In this document: in pieces, positions 11,304 through 53,363 of the stretch | Layout: the number at the start of each line of letters is the position of its first letter | Numbering within the stretch: position 1 is the stretch's first letter | Assembly (NCBI GenBank): GCA_041688155.1 | Contig: JBDNIW010000001.1 | Coordinates: 7,319 to 71,318 of the forward strand | Source: Minisyncoccota bacterium | GTDB lineage: Bacteria; Patescibacteriota; Minisyncoccia; Phycocordibacterales; UBA918 | DNA: 64,000 nucleotides | Reading direction: 5' to 3' | The notes under the pieces: model-generated | The model's database searches: none | What the model was told of the DNA's origin: nothing | The model's input: only the letters and a program-made list of their open reading frames with translations | Translations under genes and position numbers: made by a program

Positions 11304-12012
11304 TATAGTTAATCGTATGAAGAGACTCGCGCAAAAATTATTTACTGATCAACCAGGAAAAACTCATCACTTGGTGAACGATTTTTTTGCGCTGCTGACG
11401 ATTGTATCGATTGTGTCGTTGGTACTTGAAACGGTACCAGGGCTAGTAGCGTACGAGCGGACCTTTTTCATCATTGAGTGGGTCGCGGTGTCGTTCTTTA
11501 CCATCGAATACATCGGCCGGACGCTGGCCTCGAAACCAGTCTGGCGCTACCCAACCAGTTTCTTTGGGTACATTGACCTGATATCTATCCTGCCTACTTT
11601 TTTAGGGTTAGGAAACTTTACCTGGCTCAAGTCGGCCCGGGCGTTGCGAATCATCAGACTACTGCGGATGCTCCGGTTAGCAAAAGTTTTGCGTACTGGG
11701 GTGAGTGAAGACAGCATGGGCGTGTTGTCTTTAAACGTACTGATTTATTTTGTCGTACTGACGTTTGCGTTGTTGGTAACAGGCACTGCGATGTATTTGG
11801 TCGAGCCAACCACAGCCGCGTTTGTGAGTATTCCCGCTGGGATGTGGTGGTCGCTGAAAGTGTTCATGGCCGGGATTCCGGTGGTCGAGCCGGTGACGCA
11901 ACTGGGAGAATTTTTCTTCGTACTGACGCGGTTTGTGGGGTTGATGTTGTTGGGGTTGCTGATTGGAGTGGTGGGGAATGTGTTTCGGGGGTTGTTGGGA
12001 GGGAGGGGGTAA
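11293..12012 (+). CDS. ion-transport (voltage-sensor-containing) channel family protein
   Basis: S4-like segment RALRIIRLLRMLRLAKVLR with regularly spaced Arg, multiple TM helices and a pore-like region; 239 aa. Confidence 0.55.
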   Translation: MGDDIVNRMKRLAQKLFTDQPGKTHHLVNDFFALLTIVSIVSLVLETVPGLVAYERTFFIIEWVAVSFFTIEYIGRTLASKPVWRYPTSFFGYIDLISILPTFLGLGNFTWLKSARALRIIRLLRMLRLAKVLRTGVSEDSMGVLSLNVLIYFVVLTFALLVTGTAMYLVEPTTAAFVSIPAGMWWSLKVFMAGIPVVEPVTQLGEFFFVLTRFVGLMLLGLLIGVVGNVFRGLLGGRG

Positions 12013-12124
12013 TTACAGCCATTAACTCGTTATGCTGTTAGGTGCAGCGCTAGTGGTTCCAGATCGCTAACTATAATTCTGCACTTCGCGTAGATTCTAG
12101 AAAGCCTTCGGGGCTATCAACTTT

Positions 12125-12457
12125 CCTTCAAGGGGTCTCGGTCCTTACAGGACCAGTATACCTTTTGGATATATTTTCCTTTCAGGCAAATCTATCGCAA
12201 AAGCTTTTCGAGCCCTAAACGAAAGTCTCCCAGACTTTCGATTCAGGCGCACAAACAAAAAATCCCCACAGGGATTTTTTTGTTGTACGCCTTCAAGGGG
12301 TCTCTCTCGTTACACGAGCAGTATCCACCCTGGACGGTTTGTTCACATTCGCTCCAAACCGCCTCAGTGCGGCTTCGAGCCCTCCGTAAAGTCCCCCGGA
12401 CTTTACTTGAAGGCGCACAAACAAAAAATCCTCATAGGGATTCTTTTGTTGTGCGCC
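12125..12457. repeat. two tandem ~165-bp units downstream (in tRNA sense) of tRNA-Lys, each ending in a tRNA-3'-end mimic plus terminator-like hairpin
   Basis: Unit 1 is 12125..12289 and unit 2 is 12290..12457. Both start (plus strand) with ccttcaagggg, the reverse complement of the tRNA-Lys acceptor/T-stem 3' end. Both contain gcgcacaaacaaaaaatcc-N4-ggatt...gttgt.cgc hairpins and cgagccct..gtaaagtc..gacttt hairpins. Confidence 0.7.
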
Positions 12458-12524
12458 TTCAAGGGCTCGAACCTTGGACCATCTCCTTAAAAGGGAGCCG
12501 CTCTACCATCTGAGCTAAAGGCGC
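12452..12524 (-). tRNA. tRNA-Lys (anticodon TTT)
   Basis: Hand-folded cloverleaf: acceptor GCGCCTT/AAGGCGC, D-arm GCTCAGATGGTAGAGC, anticodon loop CTTTTAA, T-arm CAAGGTTCGAGCCCTTG. CCA is not encoded. Confidence 0.85.
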
Positions 12525-12617
12525 ATATTTTGTTATTACTGTAAAAGTGGCAAAACTATAACATTTTGCACTCAAAAATCAAACGATTTCTGTCATCAGT
12601 CTGATACGCTACTAGCA

Positions 12618-13085
12618 ATGAAATATATCATCCTTGAAAATATCCGCAGCGCCTACAACGTCGGGGCTATTTTCCGGACTGCTGATGGAGCTGGGGTGAG
12701 CAAAATATACTTGGTTGGGTATACTCCTAGCCCGATTGATCGGTTTGGTCGAGTACAGCCCGAGATTCTTAAAACGTCATTGGGAGCGAGTGCAGAGATC
12801 GAGTGGGAACACGTATCTATCAGCAAAGAGCTGATTATTCGACTACAGTCAGCTGGATGCGATGTAGTTGCGGTAGAGCAAGACCCGCGCTCAATCACAA
12901 TCGTTGATTTTGTTGCTCCAGCACACGTGGCGTACATCATGGGTAATGAAGTGGTGGGGGTGGAATCAGACACACTGCAGTTGTGCGACACAATCATTGA
13001 TCTCCCGATGCATGGACACAAAGAATCGCTGAATGTTTCGGTCGCTGCTGGTATAGTTATGTATCATGACGTCCTTTATAGGTAA
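12618..13085 (+). CDS. SpoU/TrmH-family RNA 2'-O-methyltransferase (TrmL-like size)
   Basis: IRSAYNVGAIFRTADGAGV... SPOUT motifs; 155 aa. Confidence 0.7.
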   Translation: MKYIILENIRSAYNVGAIFRTADGAGVSKIYLVGYTPSPIDRFGRVQPEILKTSLGASAEIEWEHVSISKELIIRLQSAGCDVVAVEQDPRSITIVDFVAPAHVAYIMGNEVVGVESDTLQLCDTIIDLPMHGHKESLNVSVAAGIVMYHDVLYR

Positions 13086-17845: not shown

Positions 17846-18048
17846 TACTCTGACTTCTGACGAAGTCCGTTTGTGCGCAGGGAGAGGGATTCGGTCAGAA
17901 ACAAATTTCTTTGCAATTTTTCATGATACTGACTCGCTTAGTCGTACTCGCCTACGCTCCGTGCGACATTACTGCGTCTCCCGAATCCCTTACCCTCCCG
18001 CACGAAATACGACAAAACCTAAAGACACGCTTTAGGTTTTGATATTTG

Positions 18049-18196: not shown

Positions 18197-18646
18197 TTAT
18201 TTTTTCATATAGTGTTCGCTGGTATGGCAATTTGGACATAATAACTCTAGATTATTTAAATTATTATTATCCCGGTTACGATCGATATGATGCACTTGCA
18301 GTATTTCGTATACATTATATTGGCAACGCTGACATAGGCTGCCTCGTTCTTTCATTAATCTCTTTTTTAGGATTCGACTAGTCACCACTTTATCTTTTGA
18401 CGGTCTGCGAGTTTTATATTTTATTCCAATACGACTTTTGTTAGCGCAGCTACGACTACAGGTCTGTTTATTGGCACCTGACAACATCGGTGTTTTGCAT
18501 ACTAAACAAGGTATTTCTTGCCGACACGAAATGCCGTAACAGGCTTGGCTACAGTAGGCTTTGCCATTGTTCTGTATCAGAACTCCTGGTCGGCGATAGA
18601 TTGGTGTCTGACATATAATACAAGTTGTGTTTGGATTACGTTCCAT
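18197..18646 (-). CDS. HNH endonuclease with an N-terminal Cys-rich zinc-ribbon region
   Basis: HNH motif QVHHIDRNRDNNNLNNLELLCPNCH plus several CxxC pairs. The gene is clearly more AT-rich than its neighbours. Confidence 0.75.
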   Translation of the reverse strand: MERNPNTTCIICQTPIYRRPGVLIQNNGKAYCSQACYGISCRQEIPCLVCKTPMLSGANKQTCSRSCANKSRIGIKYKTRRPSKDKVVTSRILKKRLMKERGSLCQRCQYNVYEILQVHHIDRNRDNNNLNNLELLCPNCHTSEHYMKK

Positions 18647-19370: not shown

Positions 19371-19417
19371 GAGTACAAAAAAGAGCACACGCTAGTGTGC
19401 CTTTTTTGTTCGTACTC
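19371..19417 (+). terminator. rho-independent terminator after the tRNA
   Basis: gagtacaaaaaagagcacac-gcta-gtgtgccttttttgttcgtactc extended palindrome with a T-run. Confidence 0.65.
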
Positions 19418-19595
19418 CCAAGAAAGCGGAGCTTTCGCCCAGGAATCCAAGAGATGGAATATAGCGCACGCAGCGAAGCGAGTACGATATGACATCTGTA
19501 CCGTTCATGTAATGAAAGATAGCCTAGTGGGAGTACAGGCAAGGATTTCAGCTGAATTCGCGCCGCTTTTGTACCCATGCTAAACTAGCTACACT

Positions 19596-23171: not shown

Positions 23172-23616
23172 ACAACTCAAAGCGATGGCACATAGGCTAT
23201 TTACAGCCCGGCCCGGAGTAGCACTAGTCAAAACGCTACACCCCAAACGAGACTGGATGGTTGGGCTGCTGGTAGGTATTTGCATCGCAACCACTATTGT
23301 TGGTTGGAGCAGGTACACGTACGTAGTAAATCGTGACGGTGGTACAACAAACCAAGAAATAGAGATTGCCAACCCAACCTATAAGGCAGTATTGGTTGAC
23401 CAAGCTCTGACAATTTTTCAAACCCGAGCAGCTAATTTTGTAAACACTGATCTACCAACGGTAGCTCCTATTGAGGCACCAATGGTTGAGCTGGAAACTG
23501 GGACTTCTTCTGCCATTACACCGGTCGATACGCAAAACCAAGAGCTGCAGATAGAAACAGTTGAGTCGCCAGTAGAGCAAGAGCAGATTTCAGAAACTCC
23601 AACGCTAAGTTGGTAG
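23155..23616 (+). CDS. hypothetical pilus-operon protein (PilP-like position) with a TM helix
   Basis: Overlaps the end of pilO; TM segment VGLLVGICIATTIVGW; 153 aa. Confidence 0.4.
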   Translation: MNQSSKQLKAMAHRLFTARPGVALVKTLHPKRDWMVGLLVGICIATTIVGWSRYTYVVNRDGGTTNQEIEIANPTYKAVLVDQALTIFQTRAANFVNTDLPTVAPIEAPMVELETGTSSAITPVDTQNQELQIETVESPVEQEQISETPTLSW

Positions 23617-23619
23617 TTG

Positions 23620-24035
23620 GTGTCCCCACTAGGAGTCGGTCACCTTCACAGCAATAGTTTGTTCGACTGGTGGTCTCTAAACTATTGTGCTACGCGACCC
23701 CGCCGCTCGTAACGTCCTCCCTGCGGTCCGGGCGATGTACTCGCTCTTTTCGACTCCTAGCCGAAAGCGTTGCTTTCTTGGAGACACGAACAAAAATGGC
23801 ACACTCACGTGTGCCATTTTTGTACTCGTGTCCCCACTAGGAGTCGGTCACCTGCGCAGCAATAGTTTGTTCGACCGGTGGTCTCCAACCTATTGTGCTA
23901 CGCGACCCCGCCGCTCGTAACGTCCTCCCTGTGGTCCGGGCGATAAACTCGCTCTTTTCGACTCCTAGCCGAAAGCGCTGCTTTCTTGGAGGCACGAACA
24001 AAAATGGCACACTCACGTGTGCCATTTTTGTACTC
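23620..24035. repeat. two tandem ~208-bp non-coding units (E1 23620..23827, E2 23828..24035) downstream of tRNA-Arg(TCT)
   Basis: Each unit begins (plus strand) with cgtgtccccactaggagtcg, the reverse complement of the tRNA-Arg T-loop half plus the acceptor 3' strand. It then carries a conserved ~125-nt core and ends with a terminator hairpin gaacaaaaatggcacac-tcac-gtgtgccatttttgtactcg. The units are ~92% identical. Confidence 0.85.
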
Positions 24036-24107
24036 GTGTCCCCACTAGGAGTCGAACCCAGATCAAAAGGATAGAAGCCTCTCGTTTTATCCATTAAACT
24101 ATAGGGA
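24036..24107 (-). tRNA. tRNA-Arg (anticodon TCT)
   Basis: Acceptor GTCCCTA/TGGGGAC, D-arm GTTT..AAAC, anticodon stem AGAGG/CCTTT with loop CTTCTAT, T-arm CTGGGTTCGACTCCTAG. Confidence 0.8.
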
Positions 24108-24460
24108 CAAATAACGGTAGCGTTATTTGTACTGAGTACAATACCAGAAATTAAGCAGAGAGAAAGCAGAAGAAGCGCGCTCTGATACAAGTATCAATAT
24201 GAGCGCGCTTTAGGGGCGTTTTCTCAGTTGGTTAAAACATAGCCCAATCAGTGAAAACGACAGTGTCTGGTTCTGGTGGCAGCGGTGGGTCTGCTGGATC
24301 CGGGACGGAACTTGGAGCTGCGGGTTGCTCTACCTCGACTGCGGGTGGTTTTGGCTGTTCCATAACAGCGCTCCTGTGCTTGGCGCTACGTTGTACGTAG
24401 CATACTCGTAAAATACGTTTGCAGACGCACCTCGTCAATTGAGTTATAAACAGTTGATTA

Positions 24461-25138
24461 TTATTTGGTCGGGTCGGTAATTGGAATCAGGATTTCATTC
24501 CGCCTAGTCAGTGGCATTGAGAGTGGGGGATTGTATTGCGCTACCTGGGCTGGGGCGCTGATGATGTAGCCGTCAGTGGTAATAAGTTCTTCGAGTAGAG
24601 CTTTTTTTGCCTCAACGCGACTCTCTGTTGCATACCAAGTAAACCTCAGCGCAGCGACCGTTGTAGCCGACACTTCTCGCAGGGTGACTTGTGGATTATT
24701 TGGAGTTGGGAGGGTATCTAGAGTATATTTTGACGGTAAGACAAACGACACGTTCCGGTTCAGCGACTCTCCAACCGTGGTTGCAACCGGCACGGTCATG
24801 GCGATCTTTTCGGATGTTGTTTCAAGAACAGGGGCAGTCATTGAAATACTGGTTTTGCTCGTATTGTTCCCAAAAATATAATCAGCGATTAATCTAAACC
24901 CACCACCAAGTGCCTCTTGATACGTACCAGTGATTTCGGTTTCGGCCACGATGTACGAATCGTACTGGCGGATCTCGTAGCCCACCCGTCGCTCCAGCAC
25001 AGTGTACGAGGGCTCTTCTATATTCCTAATAGCAAGGTAGCTGCCAATGGTCCACAGGGCAAGCGCAGCGAGTAGTCCAAATGCGAGGTAGTACATGTCA
25101 GTAGTGTACGCCTGTGCAACCCAAAAGAAAACCCGCAA
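24461..25138 (-). CDS. SOUL/HBP-family heme-binding protein, membrane-anchored
   Basis: YEIRQYDSYIVAETEI...GGFRLIADYIFGNN...MTAPV...FVLP pattern typical of the SOUL heme-binding family; N-terminal TM helix. Confidence 0.55.
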   Translation of the reverse strand: MRVFFWVAQAYTTDMYYLAFGLLAALALWTIGSYLAIRNIEEPSYTVLERRVGYEIRQYDSYIVAETEITGTYQEALGGGFRLIADYIFGNNTSKTSISMTAPVLETTSEKIAMTVPVATTVGESLNRNVSFVLPSKYTLDTLPTPNNPQVTLREVSATTVAALRFTWYATESRVEAKKALLEELITTDGYIISAPAQVAQYNPPLSMPLTRRNEILIPITDPTK

Positions 25139-25151
25139 GCGGGTTTATTCT

Positions 25152-25300
25152 GTGCGCGCAAAGAGACTCGGCCACCTTCGCATCAATTCTTTGTTCGACC
25201 GACGGTCTCCAAACTATTGTGCTACTCGACCCCGCCGCTCGCAGACGTCCTCCCTGCGGTCCGGGCGATATACTCGCTCTTTTCGAGTCTCTACGGAAGT
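25152..25300. repeat. element E3: tRNA-Val-3'-end mimic plus the conserved ~125-nt core (same family as E1/E2)
   Basis: Starts gtgcgcgcaaagagactcgg (compare the tRNA-Val acceptor 3' strand and T-stem). The core ggccaccttcgcatcaat...gtcctccctgcggtccgggcgatatactcgctcttttcgag is about 85% identical to the E1/E2 cores. Confidence 0.8.
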
Positions 25301-25527
25301 AAAACAATGCTCATCTGAATTCGGAGTACCTCGTGGTCACGAATCGCAAACTATAATCCTGGATTTTATGCAGATTCTAGAAAGCGTTCTCGACCCCGAC
25401 TCGACTGTTTTCTCCCTTGGAAAGGGGAGAAAGACATGTCTCCGTCTCGCACCAAGGCACAGGACTGAAACTTTTCAGTCCCTAAAACCAAACACGTCTC
25501 ACATGAGACGTGTTTTGTTTTACCTTG

Positions 25528-25747
25528 GTGCGCGCTCTGAGACCCGGTCACCTTCGCATCAATATTTCGTTCGACCTACGGTCTCCAAACTATTGTGCTA
25601 CGCGACCCCGACACTCGAATCGTCCTCCCTGCGGTCCGGGCGATATACTCGCTCTTTTCGAGTCTCTACGGAAGTAACTTTGGTTACTTCCTCAGCGCGC
25701 ACGAATAAAAATTGCCCACACTGCGTGTGGGCTAATTTTTATACTCG
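25528..25747. repeat. element E4: tRNA-Val-3'-end mimic plus conserved core plus terminator hairpin, directly abutting tRNA-Val
   Basis: gtgcgcgctctgagacccgg, then the core, then the hairpin cgaataaaaattgcccacac-tgcg-tgtgggctaatttttatactcg. Confidence 0.8.
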
Positions 25748-25820
25748 TGCGCGCTGAGAGACTCGAACTCCCGACATCTTCAGTGTAAATGAAGCGCTCT
25801 ACCAACTGAGCTAAGCGCGC
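25748..25820 (-). tRNA. tRNA-Val (anticodon TAC)
   Basis: Acceptor GCGCGCT/AGCGCGC, D-arm AGCTCAGTTGGTAGAGC, anticodon stem CTTCA/TGAAG with loop TTTACAC, T-arm TCGGGAGTTCGAGTCTCTCA. Confidence 0.85.
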
Positions 25821-26162
25821 GAATTAGGTTGGATGCAAATACTGCTCGTGAGCGGATATTTGTAGGCACTATCGTACCTAATTTTGGAGAAAAGACAAGC
25901 GGCCTACCTTTTGAGGGTAGGCCGCAGAGCGGTCATTTCATCGCTTGACCGCTTGTGGTGGTTGACGTCGACACACACCAACATTCCTGTCCTTGACGGT
26001 TTTCCCCCGCTTGGGTTTTGGTTGCTCTTCACGCACTGCAGCAGCTTGCTTTTTTGCTGCTCTATCGGCGTCGTCTGGAGTCCAGTCTTTAGGCATACGC
26101 GTATCGCTCCTCTGTTTGTACTAAGTTACTATTTGTCTCTTTATAATTCGTTTTGCAAAAAA

Positions 26163-51119: not shown

Positions 51120-53363
51120 ATGAAATCTATGAATTCACACCAACCAAGTGTAGTCACTCTTTGTACCAAAGCTTTATTTATAACTAGTGTCGTAACCGCT
51201 TTATTTTTTATCATCGGTATTCAGGTGGCTGCTGCGCAGACACCTGGCTCATTTAGTACCACCTGGCAGACCGACAATCCGGGAACTAGTAGCTCAACTG
51301 CTATTACCATCCCTACTACCGGTGGAGGATTTAACTACACAGTCTACTGGGAAGAAGTTGGTACTCCAGGGAATAACGGAACAAGTACAGGACTTACTGG
51401 TGACGCGACGATTGATTTTCCAAGTGCGGGTACCTACCGAGTAGATATTACCGGTGATTTCCCAGAGATTTTCTTTGACGGTGCTGGTGATCAAGAAAAG
51501 ATTCTCACCATTGAACAGTGGGGAACTATTGCCTGGAGTAGTATGTATCATGCTTTCTATGGTACGACTAATTTGACGTACGAAGCTACAGACGCACCTG
51601 ACCTTTCATCCGTAATTGATTTAGCTGGCATGTTTTTTGGCGCCACTGCTTTTAACGGCAATCTTGATACGTGGGATGTGAGTAATGTTGTTGCTATGGG
51701 TGATATGTTTCGCGATGCAACCAGCTTCAACGGGACACTTAATGGCTGGGGTTCTGATATTGGTTCGGTTACAAACATGTCTGCAATGTTTCAAGGTGCC
51801 ACCAGCTTCAACCAACCACTAGATACCTGGGACGTAAGTAGTGTGACTAACATGGGAAATATGTTTCGAGATGCTAACAGCTTCGACAGTGCTCTCAACG
51901 GCTGGGGTGCTAATACAGGAATTGTTACAAACATGCTTTCAATGTTTGAAGGTGCCACCAGCTTCAACCAACCACTAGATACCTGGGACGTAAGTAGTGT
52001 GACTAACATGGGAAATATGTTTCGAGATGCAACAGCCTTTAATCGACCACTAGAGGATTGGAACGTGAGTAGTGTTGTGAGTATGTCGTCCATGTTTGAA
52101 GGGGCTACTAACTTTAACGGTGCCCTCAATGGCTGGGGTACCACGACGGCATCGGTGACCACTATGTTTGATATGTTTGAGAGTGCAGCTAACTTCAACC
52201 AGCCATTGGATAACTGGGATGTAAGTAGTGTGACTAATATGAATGATATGTTCCAAAACTCTGTCAACTTCAACGGTGCCCTTAACGGCTGGGGTACCAC
52301 GACGGCATCGGTGACTAATATGCAGTCGATGTTTAATGGGGCAGATAGTTTCAATCAACCACTTGATCAGTGGGATGTGAGTAGTGTTACAAGTATGGCG
52401 TTCATGTTCCTTGACGCTGGTAATTTTAACAGTGCCCTCAATGGTTGGGGGACCACTACTGCCAGTGTTACTAGTATGTTTGGTATGTTCGAAGATGCGA
52501 GTAACTTCAATCAACCGCTTGGTACATGGGATGTAAGTAGTACTACAAACATGAATCGTCTATTCCAAAATGCTGCCAACTTTAATCAACCAATCGAGAC
52601 TTGGGATGTGAGTAGTGTTAACAACATGCAGGCAATGTTTAACGGTGCTACTAATTTCAACCAACCGCTTGGTGCGTGGGATATTAGAAATGTGCCACCT
52701 ACTGGTCTCGCGAACACCTTTGATGGAACCGCTTGGAGTAAAGAAAGCTACTCAGCTACGTTAGAGGGATGGAGTGCTCAAGGAAGTACACCTCCAGGTC
52801 TAGATTTAGAAACTACCGCCCAGTACCTTGCAACAGCTGAATCAGCTCGGCAGATGCTCATTTCTAATGGTTGGACTATCACTGATGGTGGAGTGTATAC
52901 AGCACCCCCAAGTGGAGGAAGTAGTGGAACCCGTACCCGAATGCCATCTACGTCACAAATATTACCACCCGCACCACCAACATCCGCACCACCAACATCC
53001 GAAGTACCAGTCGATCGAGATGAGATTTTAGTACGCATCGCAGAGTTAGAACAACTAATAGTTCTCCTGCAAACCCAAGCTGGAATGCCAGTGTCGCCAA
53101 TCCCAACAGATTCAGAAATACCAGATGATTGTTTTTTCAGTCGTGACCTCATGACTGGCTCTAGTGGGGAAGACGTTACTTGTCTACAGTCGTACTTAAC
53201 GAGTACTGGAGACTTCAGTTACTCTGAAGGACCGACTGGCTACTATGGTGAGGTGACCAGAACCGCAGTGCGACGATGGCAAGAGCGGAACGAAATACTT
53301 CCAGCAGCGGGCTACTTTGGCTCAATCTCTCAACGTACCTCTCGTAGTGCGTATACTAAATAG
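51120..53363 (+). CDS. large secreted surface protein with DUF285 (BspA-like) repeats, a Pro/Thr-rich linker and a C-terminal peptidoglycan-binding domain
   Basis: Signal peptide; at least 12 repeats of the FNQPLDTWDVSSVTNMxxMF type (DUF285). The C-terminus GSSGEDVTCLQSYLTSTG...YYGEVTRTAVRRWQERNEIL resembles a PG_binding_1 domain. Internal nucleotide repeats include an ~88-nt near-identical copy at 51796..51883 and 51955..52042. Confidence 0.7.
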   Translation: MKSMNSHQPSVVTLCTKALFITSVVTALFFIIGIQVAAAQTPGSFSTTWQTDNPGTSSSTAITIPTTGGGFNYTVYWEEVGTPGNNGTSTGLTGDATIDFPSAGTYRVDITGDFPEIFFDGAGDQEKILTIEQWGTIAWSSMYHAFYGTTNLTYEATDAPDLSSVIDLAGMFFGATAFNGNLDTWDVSNVVAMGDMFRDATSFNGTLNGWGSDIGSVTNMSAMFQGATSFNQPLDTWDVSSVTNMGNMFRDANSFDSALNGWGANTGIVTNMLSMFEGATSFNQPLDTWDVSSVTNMGNMFRDATAFNRPLEDWNVSSVVSMSSMFEGATNFNGALNGWGTTTASVTTMFDMFESAANFNQPLDNWDVSSVTNMNDMFQNSVNFNGALNGWGTTTASVTNMQSMFNGADSFNQPLDQWDVSSVTSMAFMFLDAGNFNSALNGWGTTTASVTSMFGMFEDASNFNQPLGTWDVSSTTNMNRLFQNAANFNQPIETWDVSSVNNMQAMFNGATNFNQPLGAWDIRNVPPTGLANTFDGTAWSKESYSATLEGWSAQGSTPPGLDLETTAQYLATAESARQMLISNGWTITDGGVYTAPPSGGSSGTRTRMPSTSQILPPAPPTSAPPTSEVPVDRDEILVRIAELEQLIVLLQTQAGMPVSPIPTDSEIPDDCFFSRDLMTGSSGEDVTCLQSYLTSTGDFSYSEGPTGYYGEVTRTAVRRWQERNEILPAAGYFGSISQRTSRSAYTK

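Follow-up and report, generated by a model that had tools for sequence, protein, structure and literature searches.

Tandem units behind tRNA-Lys of a Minisyncoccota bacterium and a candidate family of tRNA- and tmRNA-anchored modular cassettes

The 178-bp repeats distal to tyrT/tyrV of Escherichia coli are the nearest analogue of the elements treated here, short tandem units behind the tRNA-Lys(UUU) gene of a Minisyncoccota bacterium and their relatives behind other tRNA and tmRNA genes. The window analysed is a whole stretch of 64,000 nucleotides of this genome (contig JBDNIW010000001.1, positions 7,319 to 71,318 of the forward strand); positions are counted within it, while loci from other sequences carry L numbers. 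For the E. coli tyrT repeats an origin by slippage or unequal crossing-over has been proposed. In E. coli K-12 (NC_000913, 1286200-1287900) we found the 19-nt end of tRNA-Tyr copied at +159, +337 and +515, with one mismatch each and a spacing of 178 nt. Every tyrV-distal repeat also carries an inverted partial copy, GGGGAAGGAT, which pairs with ATCCTTCCCC and closes a 10-bp stem. A role of the rtT RNA in processing of the adjacent tyrT transcript was reported (10.1101/2024.07.17.603846). Like these repeats, the Lys units stand in tandem behind a tRNA gene, the last part of each unit copies the 3' end of that tRNA (~19 nt), and the layout of inverted copy, body and direct copy is the same. The E. 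coli system differs by its single locus, one unit type and an encoded CCA, whereas the units described here combine one core with more than 26 tRNAs and tmRNA, mixed families, a terminator-like hairpin per unit and possible open reading frames (ORFs). No RF00391 match indicating homology to rtT was obtained at gathering threshold or at E <= 10 (window 11950-12620 and 23500-25900).

Islands that accrete at tRNA genes are a further point of comparison. Tycheposons are known for full and partial tRNA repeats, successive insertion, degenerate remnants, and tRNA and tmRNA targets (10.1101/2020.12.28.424599). With such islands our arrays share partial-tRNA direct repeats, outward displacement, accessory and defence cargo and, probably, gain or loss at the strain level, and the units are flanked by an intact tRNA and a partial-tRNA direct repeat, as in integrase-borne elements. 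However, tycheposons and islands encode a tyrosine or large serine recombinase, with each lineage bound to particular tRNAs, while the units are 130-210 bp long, contain no ORF and have no recombinase nearby in most arrays. Their repeats measure ~11-22 nt compared to ~40 nt, and only the units possess an inverted tRNA-end copy and a covarying structured core. Integron attC arrays resemble them in small unit size, an imperfect palindrome conserved in structure, small and often orphan ORFs and a recombinase in trans, which for the units would have to be postulated. Unlike integrons, the arrays are anchored on tRNA genes and hold a conserved structured core outside the palindrome. When integron features were looked for, no IntI, attI or Pc was found, and the feet of the hairpin, CTTGAAGGCGCAC and GTGCGCCTTCAAG, are tRNA-derived and do not follow RYYYAAC/GTTRRRY. 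Acceptor-like helices beside another RNA occur in plant mitochondrial t-elements, MALAT1 mascRNA and the tRNA-miRNA RNAs of MHV68, and tRNA-like signals can recruit RNase P, RNase Z and the CCA-adding enzyme, thereby fixing where an RNA ends. In contrast to these RNAs, the units have no T-loop and no cloverleaf and retain only a closing helix similar to acceptor and T-stem; ARAGORN and RF00005 called only the seven true tRNAs in the window and none of the units.

According to our best reading, the units form a widespread, undescribed family of tRNA- and tmRNA-anchored modular cassettes that is absent from Rfam. Rfam searches at gathering threshold and E <= 10 returned tRNAs and tmRNA only, with no ribozyme, riboswitch or rtT, and nothing relevant on such elements was found in the literature on Patescibacteria and candidate-phyla-radiation bacteria. 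The tRNA-Lys(UUU) gene lies at 12451..12524 on the minus strand (ARAGORN; Rfam RF00005, 66.9 bits) and has no encoded CCA. The copied last ~20 nt of this gene are named X here (ttcgagcccttgaaggcgcac, within 12451..12524, minus strand), inverted copies X'. Two tandem units of ~166 bp follow, unit 1 at 12290-12457 and unit 2 at 12125-12289. A preliminary description, made from the sequence alone, had placed them there, and repeat finder and alignment agreed. Globally, the units are 71% identical; the repeat finder returned an 81-nt family with 85% and a 35-nt family with 86% identity, spaced by 165-166 nt. Hairpin and tRNA-derived parts are almost the same in both, and divergence is found in a body of ~75 nt. 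The string CCCTTGAAGG, which spans the T-stem 3' strand and the first part of the acceptor 3' strand, has only three occurrences on both strands of the window, in tRNA-Lys and at the ends of unit 1 and unit 2, all as predicted. Of the ends in ccccttgaagg reported for both units, both are real, but the copy of unit 1 goes on through the whole acceptor strand (ccccttgaaggcgtac) and that of unit 2 stops there. In tRNA sense, the order within a unit is terminator-like hairpin, inverted tRNA-end copy, small hairpin, structured core and direct tRNA-end copy. The unit had been described correctly before, except that X' beside the direct copy had been overlooked. A segment noted as 'ctcgaa' is present and turned out to be the tRNA's own T-loop and T-stem 3' strand in reverse complement (AGGGCTCGAA versus TTCGAGCCCT, 10/10 in units 1 and 2).

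The terminator-like hairpins of the preliminary description were recovered as inverted repeats. The first, X-H1-X'a (12406..12463, no strand assigned, inverted repeat I2), has 26-nt arms at 12406-12431 and 12438-12463 that are 88% complementary (repeat finder). Its 5' arm starts within tRNA-Lys (cttgaaggcgcac...) and comprises the T-stem 3' and acceptor 3' strands followed by an A-rich stretch, its 3' arm a T-rich stretch and gtgcgccttcaag. As gtgcgccttcaag is the reverse complement of the tRNA-Lys 3' end, the 3' end of the tRNA itself serves as 5' arm. The inner part of this hairpin looks like a bidirectional terminator. On the minus strand follow the small hairpin P2 of unit 1 (12386..12405, taaagtcc-ggg-ggacttta), X'b (12374..12385, ggagggctcgaa, inverted repeat I12, 10/10), the long hairpin P4 (12325..12373; covariance model R1, 84 bits over 12285-12424), the conserved junction ATACTG with the P5 hairpin ctcgt-GTA-acgag (12306..12324) and the direct copy X-1 (12285..12304, gagaccccttgaaggcgtac). 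Pairing of X-1 with X'a and X'b closes unit 1 by stems of 13 bp and 6 bp.

Unit 2 repeats this arrangement. Its long hairpin X-1/H2/X'a-2 (12245..12292, no strand assigned, inverted repeat I4) has 22-nt arms at 12245-12266 and 12271-12292 with 86% complementarity (repeat finder); here too the 3' arm contains gtgcgccttcaag. On the minus strand it continues with P2 (12220..12240, cgaaagtc-tggga-gactttcg), X'b (12207..12219, tttagggctcgaa, inverted repeat I11, 10/10), P4 with the canonical type-L core (12161..12206, aagcttttgcgatagattt...aaatatatccaaaagg; R1, 115.6 bits over 12120-12258), the junction TATACTG with the P5 hairpin gtcct-GTA-aggac (12141..12160) and X-2 (12125..12140, cgagaccccttgaagg), a truncated direct copy with its acceptor part absent. 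The P4 sequences of the two units are unlike each other, with pairing preserved. The small hairpin had been noted for each unit and appeared in the folds of both; its loop-and-stem motif AGTCYGGGRGACT was seen again in many family members. Beyond unit 2 lies a remnant of a third unit of a different, 'G-type' family (12040..12124, minus strand). From its sequence, the Lys array is best described as unit 1, then a unit 2 that looks decayed, then a truncated G-type stump.

Own-3'-end units were found behind five of the seven tRNAs of the window, namely Lys, Ser-tga, Arg-gcg, Arg-tct and Val. Apart from the two Lys units, copies lie at +159 for Ser-tga (array 17874-18047, minus strand), at +152 for Arg-gcg (19371-19536, plus strand) and at +205 and +581 for Val(tac) (25150-25746, minus strand); Arg-tct has two units (23620-24035, minus strand; Tandem Repeats Finder period 208, 95% identity). 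The window scan detected no downstream units at tRNA-Leu(gag) (28767) and tRNA-His (58694), one weak match only was obtained in the upstream controls of the window tRNAs, and the genome sequence examined beyond the window held no further tRNAs. From TCGAA to GTGACC the bodies of the Arg-tct and Val units show ~87% identity, whereas P2, X' and X differ and fit their own tRNA. Ser-tga and Arg-gcg have a further body motif in common, gcgcacg.agcg.aggcgagtacga, and their single units show X'/X closing stems with z-scores of -3.6 and -3.8. At Arg-gcg, the gtActccca of the unit's 5' strand is perfectly complementary to the tgggagTac of its own 3' copy, where the tRNA reads tgggagCac.

G-type units read agacgga, a hairpin, gagtcggggtcgaga, a hairpin of the type seen at 12069-12105, cgtgacc and X. 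A complete one stands behind tRNA-Tyr in L161 and matches unit E3 of the Val locus over ~118 nt, another behind tRNA-Phe in L145, and Lys-locus positions 12051-12110 are 75% identical to E3 over 60 nt. Within the stump lies a motif of ~37 nt (12069-12105) that had been described as a motif of the array boundary, recurring at the Val locus. The recurrence stood up (25349-25385, with 0 chance matches expected). The role did not, since the motif lies inside the G-type stump and, checked elsewhere, proved to be an internal hairpin of this third family. The perfect TATAAT pointed out within it is present as well, but was not called by the promoter scan, and we rejected it as a promoter.

Judged by flanking genes and the best related genomes, the window falls within Patescibacteria, among Paceibacteria/Kaiserbacteria-like lineages. 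Beyond the window, we used 60 loci of GTDB genomes, gathered via their SpoU neighbour as an unbiased set, and applied a body-only pattern (CGAAAASCTTTT-N25-45-AAAAGGTRTACTG) to metagenomes. The covariance model R1 found units in 7 of the 60 loci. Lys-type units stand behind tRNA-Lys in the distant Patescibacteria L008 (two units), L013 and L014, and in all three X'a, X'b and X are altered in step with the tRNA-Lys of their own genome. An example is L008 with cagggatcgaa ... accctggtgggcggat where the tRNA ends ccctggtgggcggac. The same core was also found behind tRNA-Arg(gcg) in L014, there with an Arg-specific X, and behind tRNA-Ser in L067. L006, L007 and L061, all close relatives, are without units. 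In metagenomes, the body-only pattern matched at least 120 loci. At least 95 copies have a tRNA on the same strand less than 700 nt upstream, and these tRNAs represent at least 26 anticodon classes and at least 14 amino acids. Among the matches listed, the segment after P5 reached a median ungapped score of 15 with the 3'-terminal 24 nt of its own tRNA compared to 6 with other tRNAs, often with 20-22 nt of perfect match from G53/T54 to the discriminator, and the segment before the body scored a median of 11 with the reverse complement of the tRNA end compared to 6 for other tRNAs. Several of these matches without a called tRNA sit behind tmRNA, others behind further units in long arrays. Two tmRNA genes (Rfam RF00023) are directly followed by a type-L unit (L074:1481-2047 and L164:231-798), with X and flanks fitting the tmRNA 3' end. 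From the architecture alone, a process that acts generally at the 3' ends of tRNAs had been proposed instead of one duplicated segment. This view is supported by the five window tRNAs as well as by the other genomes and metagenomes.

The core is conserved as a structure. Unit 1 (12418-12285) folds with -64.3 kcal/mol, compared to a mean of -42.3 for dinucleotide shuffles (z = -5.66). In this fold X'a and X form the 13-bp closing stem, P2 is the small hairpin, and X'b with the T-part of X builds a second stem that encloses P4 and P5, the latter with a GTA triloop. P2, P4 and P5 are also present in the fold of unit 2; its closing stem is absent due to the truncation of its X. Statistics were calculated for 102 non-redundant units and 500 shuffles. 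Standard pairs occupied 91.5% of the cells versus 75.3% in shuffles, and the covariation score of 0.421 (0.125 in shuffles) was reached by none of the 500. When partner columns were slid as a control, pairing fell to 30-56%. The outermost pair of P5 occurs in all four Watson-Crick types and the other four pairs in three or four types, and 44 distinct P5 stems were counted. The start of the type-L core is a perfect 10-bp palindrome, AAAAGCTTTT (window 12197-12206 and type-L consensus), and the junction includes GTATAC. As unit 1 lacks this palindrome and nevertheless keeps the pairing, a hairpin is preferred over a double-stranded protein-binding site.

A strand preference was observed too. In per-sequence folds, G-U pairs on the tRNA-sense versus the other strand numbered 71 versus 13 in P4 and 51 versus 15 in P2, and the tRNA-sense strand was the more stable one in 91 of the 102 units. 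The X'/X stems were symmetric (73 versus 62). An RNA and a single-stranded DNA with strand-specific folding, either of them read in tRNA sense, are equally compatible with this pattern. Two structural candidates were discarded. A hammerhead was considered for the three-way junction, but by inspection its sequences do not fit the hammerhead core. A tRNA pseudogene with a T-loop insertion was rejected because X'b is the reverse complement of a non-palindromic part of the T-loop (GCTC) and not a T-stem 5' strand followed by T-loop.

Arrays mix families and can contain ORF cargo, and closely related sequences differ by whole cassettes. Behind tRNA-Trp, L138 carries successive cassettes of small ORF, type-L unit and X. 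Its 99.3% identical counterpart L084 is without exactly one such cassette (ORF and unit) between two X copies. L116 and L142 share 99.1% identity across tRNA-Gly and two units that are identical to each other, and split directly after the second X, where one enters another unit type and the other ORF cargo. In L140, 3 kb of accessory genes lie between two X copies, with a type-L core just 5' of the distal X. The cargo of arrays includes a glyoxalase, a DUF2726 endonuclease-like protein, Fic, NYN, a type IV secretion system pilin/VanY protein and a helicase; no integrase was among it. Some ORF-bearing cassettes (L138:11500-13700, L187, L178 and L153) show an inverted repeat of 9-10 bp, TTCAGAACT...AGTTCTGAA(AGCC), at both ends, the right copy of which looks like a variant T-loop with an acceptor-like end after it.

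The promoter scan gave no match inside unit arrays. In the Lys region the only promoter-like match, a sigma-70-like TTGATT-16-TGnTATAGT at 12555..12582 on the minus strand, lies upstream of tRNA-Lys. Terminator calls were obtained for H at the Ser-tga, Arg-gcg and Val loci, on both strands at Arg-gcg and Val, and the H hairpins of the Arg-tct and Lys arrays received none.

We propose that the units are modular cassettes anchored on tRNA and tmRNA genes, gained and lost by recombination at X, with a core that folds into an RNA closed by a tRNA-like helix; for this explanation as a whole, our judgement is evenly balanced. A cassette would consist of hairpin H, an X' usually split by P2, a three-way-junction core made of the P4 hairpin, the junction GGUAUACUG and the P5 hairpin with its GUA triloop, and finally an X reaching from T-loop to discriminator. 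Movement, as we infer it, would proceed by recombination within or at X, akin to attL/attR accretion at tRNA genes, with an enzyme acting in trans. Each incoming cassette would supply the tRNA with a fresh terminator and shift older cassettes outward, where they would decay; unit 2 and the G-type stump of the Lys locus are consistent with such a push. In read-through transcripts from the tRNA promoter, X' is predicted to pair with X and to close the core with a helix resembling acceptor and T-arm. By analogy to rtT RNA and the tyrT repeats, tRNA-maturation enzymes could then free a stable RNA of unit length. A bolder version, comparable to integrons, starts from a folded module, RNA or single-stranded DNA, with sequences both complementary and identical to the 3' end of the tRNA gene, and sees in it a recombination site or guide that can be programmed and is used by an enzyme in trans. 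We consider it unlikely; if true, it would account for the re-targeting of one core to more than 26 tRNA genes and for small accessory genes gathering behind tRNAs in reduced genomes.

We are aware of several observations that weigh against the proposed cassettes and their RNA. With no promoter in the arrays and a terminator-like hairpin before each unit, unit RNA could arise only via read-through. G-T wobbles are tolerated in folded single-stranded DNA too, so the strand asymmetry is no proof of RNA. In units whose X deviates from the tRNA, pairing of X'a is restricted to the upstream tRNA end in 12 cases and to the unit's own X in 6; in 13 it can pair with both via G-U. As X'a thus tracks the upstream end more often, the X-H-X' hairpin is kept at least as much as the closing stem, and it may be this hairpin, not the closing stem, that is the maintained structure. 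All available contigs of the Lys locus of the window's strain are 100% identical and so give no sign of mobility for these two units. At the junction of L084 and L138 a perfect stretch of 37 nt is common to both, and homologous recombination or slippage among similar units, not site-specific recombination, could be the source of the observed insertions and deletions. A Pfam scan of ~32 window ORFs detected no recombinase, integrase or transposase, one of array cargo no recombinase, and clustering of 740 neighbouring ORFs revealed no recurrent recombinase near units. Moreover, our proposal gives no account of how a core gains both X and X' for a new tRNA.

The same results have to be held against other explanations. 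Tandem duplication from the tRNA T-loop by slippage or unequal crossing-over, as a purely local event without mobility or a family, fits the adjacent, in-register Lys units with X and H in common, the two identical tandem units of L116 and the look-alike tyrT repeats of E. coli. It is already contradicted as a complete explanation, and highly improbable, as homologues of the Lys core, their flanks re-fitted every time, follow other tRNAs and occur in further genomes, as the ~87% identical Arg-tct and Val cores of one genome have different ends, and as unrelated families are mixed within arrays. Duplication probably accounts for changes of copy number within an array, not for the origin of units. 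That the units are decayed scars of integrase-borne islands (prophages, integrative and conjugative elements or tycheposon-like elements), i.e., remnants of attP arms and old attR sites with incidental structure, we regard as quite improbable. Full and partial tRNA repeats, outward displacement, remnants and the use of tRNA and tmRNA do match tycheposons (10.1101/2020.12.28.424599), accessory cargo (Fic, NYN, DUF2726 endonuclease-like protein, glyoxalase) lies between X copies, and at L067 a pair of large serine recombinases is encoded within 6 kb. However, an integrase family is normally limited to one or few targets, and here one core family goes with 26 tRNA classes and tmRNA. Decaying arm DNA would not be expected to show strong covariation, conservation of junction and loop sequences or a strand bias of G-U pairs, attP arms have no inverted tRNA-end copy, most arrays are without an integrase in or near them, and no matching attP was obtained in phage, plasmid or viral-contig searches.

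The structural evidence is shared by two further explanations. Each tRNA might own a dedicated companion small-RNA gene that is vertically inherited and homogenised by gene conversion without cassette mobility, in which case conversion tracts would end in the T-loop-derived flanks, TCGAA on the left and TTCGA on the right. Cross-locus similarity indeed begins and ends exactly at these anchors, covariation and strand bias agree, and Lys-type units are syntenic behind tRNA-Lys even where the SpoU neighbour is only 53-62% identical. We nevertheless assign this a low probability, given the patchy distribution (none in L006, L007 and L061, and only 7 of the 60 unbiased loci), decayed copies and ORF cargo in arrays, whole-cassette differences between strains, the terminator-like hairpin before every unit and the lack of own promoters; the origin of X' and X at more than 26 genes would also be left without explanation. 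Alternatively, the folded element could be a substrate of recombination, with X-H-X' as a folded single-strand site resembling an integron attC or the attP of CTX phage, or the unit RNA could be a guide similar to a bridge RNA, which would base-pair via X' with the end of the tRNA gene and direct a recombinase in trans. Conservation of structure over sequence, the long hairpin with its extra-helical P2, cassettes with small accessory ORFs and the tracking of the upstream X by X'a all argue for it, as do flanks complementary or identical to the target at all 26 or more targets, as a programmable guide would have them. Neither IntI nor an IS110-type or other partner protein was found among the window ORFs and the 740 neighbouring ORFs, the hairpin feet lack the attC R-box consensus, and no circular or excised form turned up in this analysis, which makes this explanation distinctly unlikely too. 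Miniature inverted-repeat transposable elements are recognised by family-wide terminal inverted repeats, short target-site duplications and dispersed insertion. Here, the X'/X inverted repeats differ per locus and equal the local tRNA end, and among the matches listed copies stand only behind tRNA or tmRNA genes or in such arrays.

A phage or plasmid origin of the units was rejected. In IMG/VR the type-L pattern gave one genuine match, the Patescibacteria-like contig L067, and two spurious coding matches; the matches of the A-type (Arg/Val) and G-type patterns in viral contigs all lay in high-GC coding sequence and were spurious, and blastn against INPHARED phages and PLSDB plasmids yielded no match. 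Homologues of large serine recombinases occurred in only 4 loci. L067 (228-10370) contains a defence-type island behind two tRNA-Ser genes, with ParB, a RelA/SpoT-like toxSAS, a DNA methylase and a ResIII helicase. Two large serine recombinases belong to this island, 0.2-6 kb downstream, and L067 is the only locus with such genes close to an array. Near the island junction, a tRNA-end-like copy and an inverted T-arm copy (agtaagggattcgaa) were observed.

Patescibacteria have tiny genomes with few recognised mobile elements, and how accessory genes reach them is poorly understood. The family is a marker of variable DNA downstream of tRNA and tmRNA genes, one structurally conserved core being combined with flanks that fit whichever tRNA precedes. 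If the units are cassettes, they indicate hot spots of the flexible genome in a large radiation and imply a recombination mechanism of retargetable specificity. If they are processed RNAs, they would constitute a new class of tRNA-linked small RNAs and the first relatives in kind of the E. coli tyrT/rtT repeats. In either case R1 is a concrete annotation model for intergenic DNA now without explanation. Such repeats can also break assemblies, as seen for contig L005, which stops inside the tRNA.

Some further genes were noted close to tRNAs. An ORF of ~225-280 aa with an N-terminal helix-turn-helix (HTH) domain (HTH_23 or resolvase-HTH-like) and, C-terminally, a domain that bears the motif LYWAEG(A/G)K and is LAGLIDADG-like in appearance, was seen in L146:262-1095, L155, L079, L088, L187:2904-3563, L081, L135, L100 and L037. 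At several of these loci (e.g., L146, L079, L088, L100 and L187) it lies directly upstream of tRNA genes, of differing identity (Gln, Arg, Gly and Val). It is absent from the window and may be a mobile tRNA-linked gene. Within the window, a SOUL heme-binding protein gene (24461-25138, minus strand) separates the end of the Val array from tRNA-Arg(tct), has the orientation of the tRNAs and could be array cargo, and an HNH endonuclease gene (18197-18646, minus strand) lies directly upstream of tRNA-Ser(tga). Tandem repeats with periods of 75 and 156 at 51696-52585 (plus strand) are part of an ORF of 747 aa, which looks like an ordinary repeat protein; its orthologue in L195 has DUF285 repeats. 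Finally, rnpA, dnaA and dnaN were located in L196:3892-7398, about 3-6.5 kb before the window start. The window thus adjoins a likely replication origin, and with rnpA the genome encodes the protein of RNase P.

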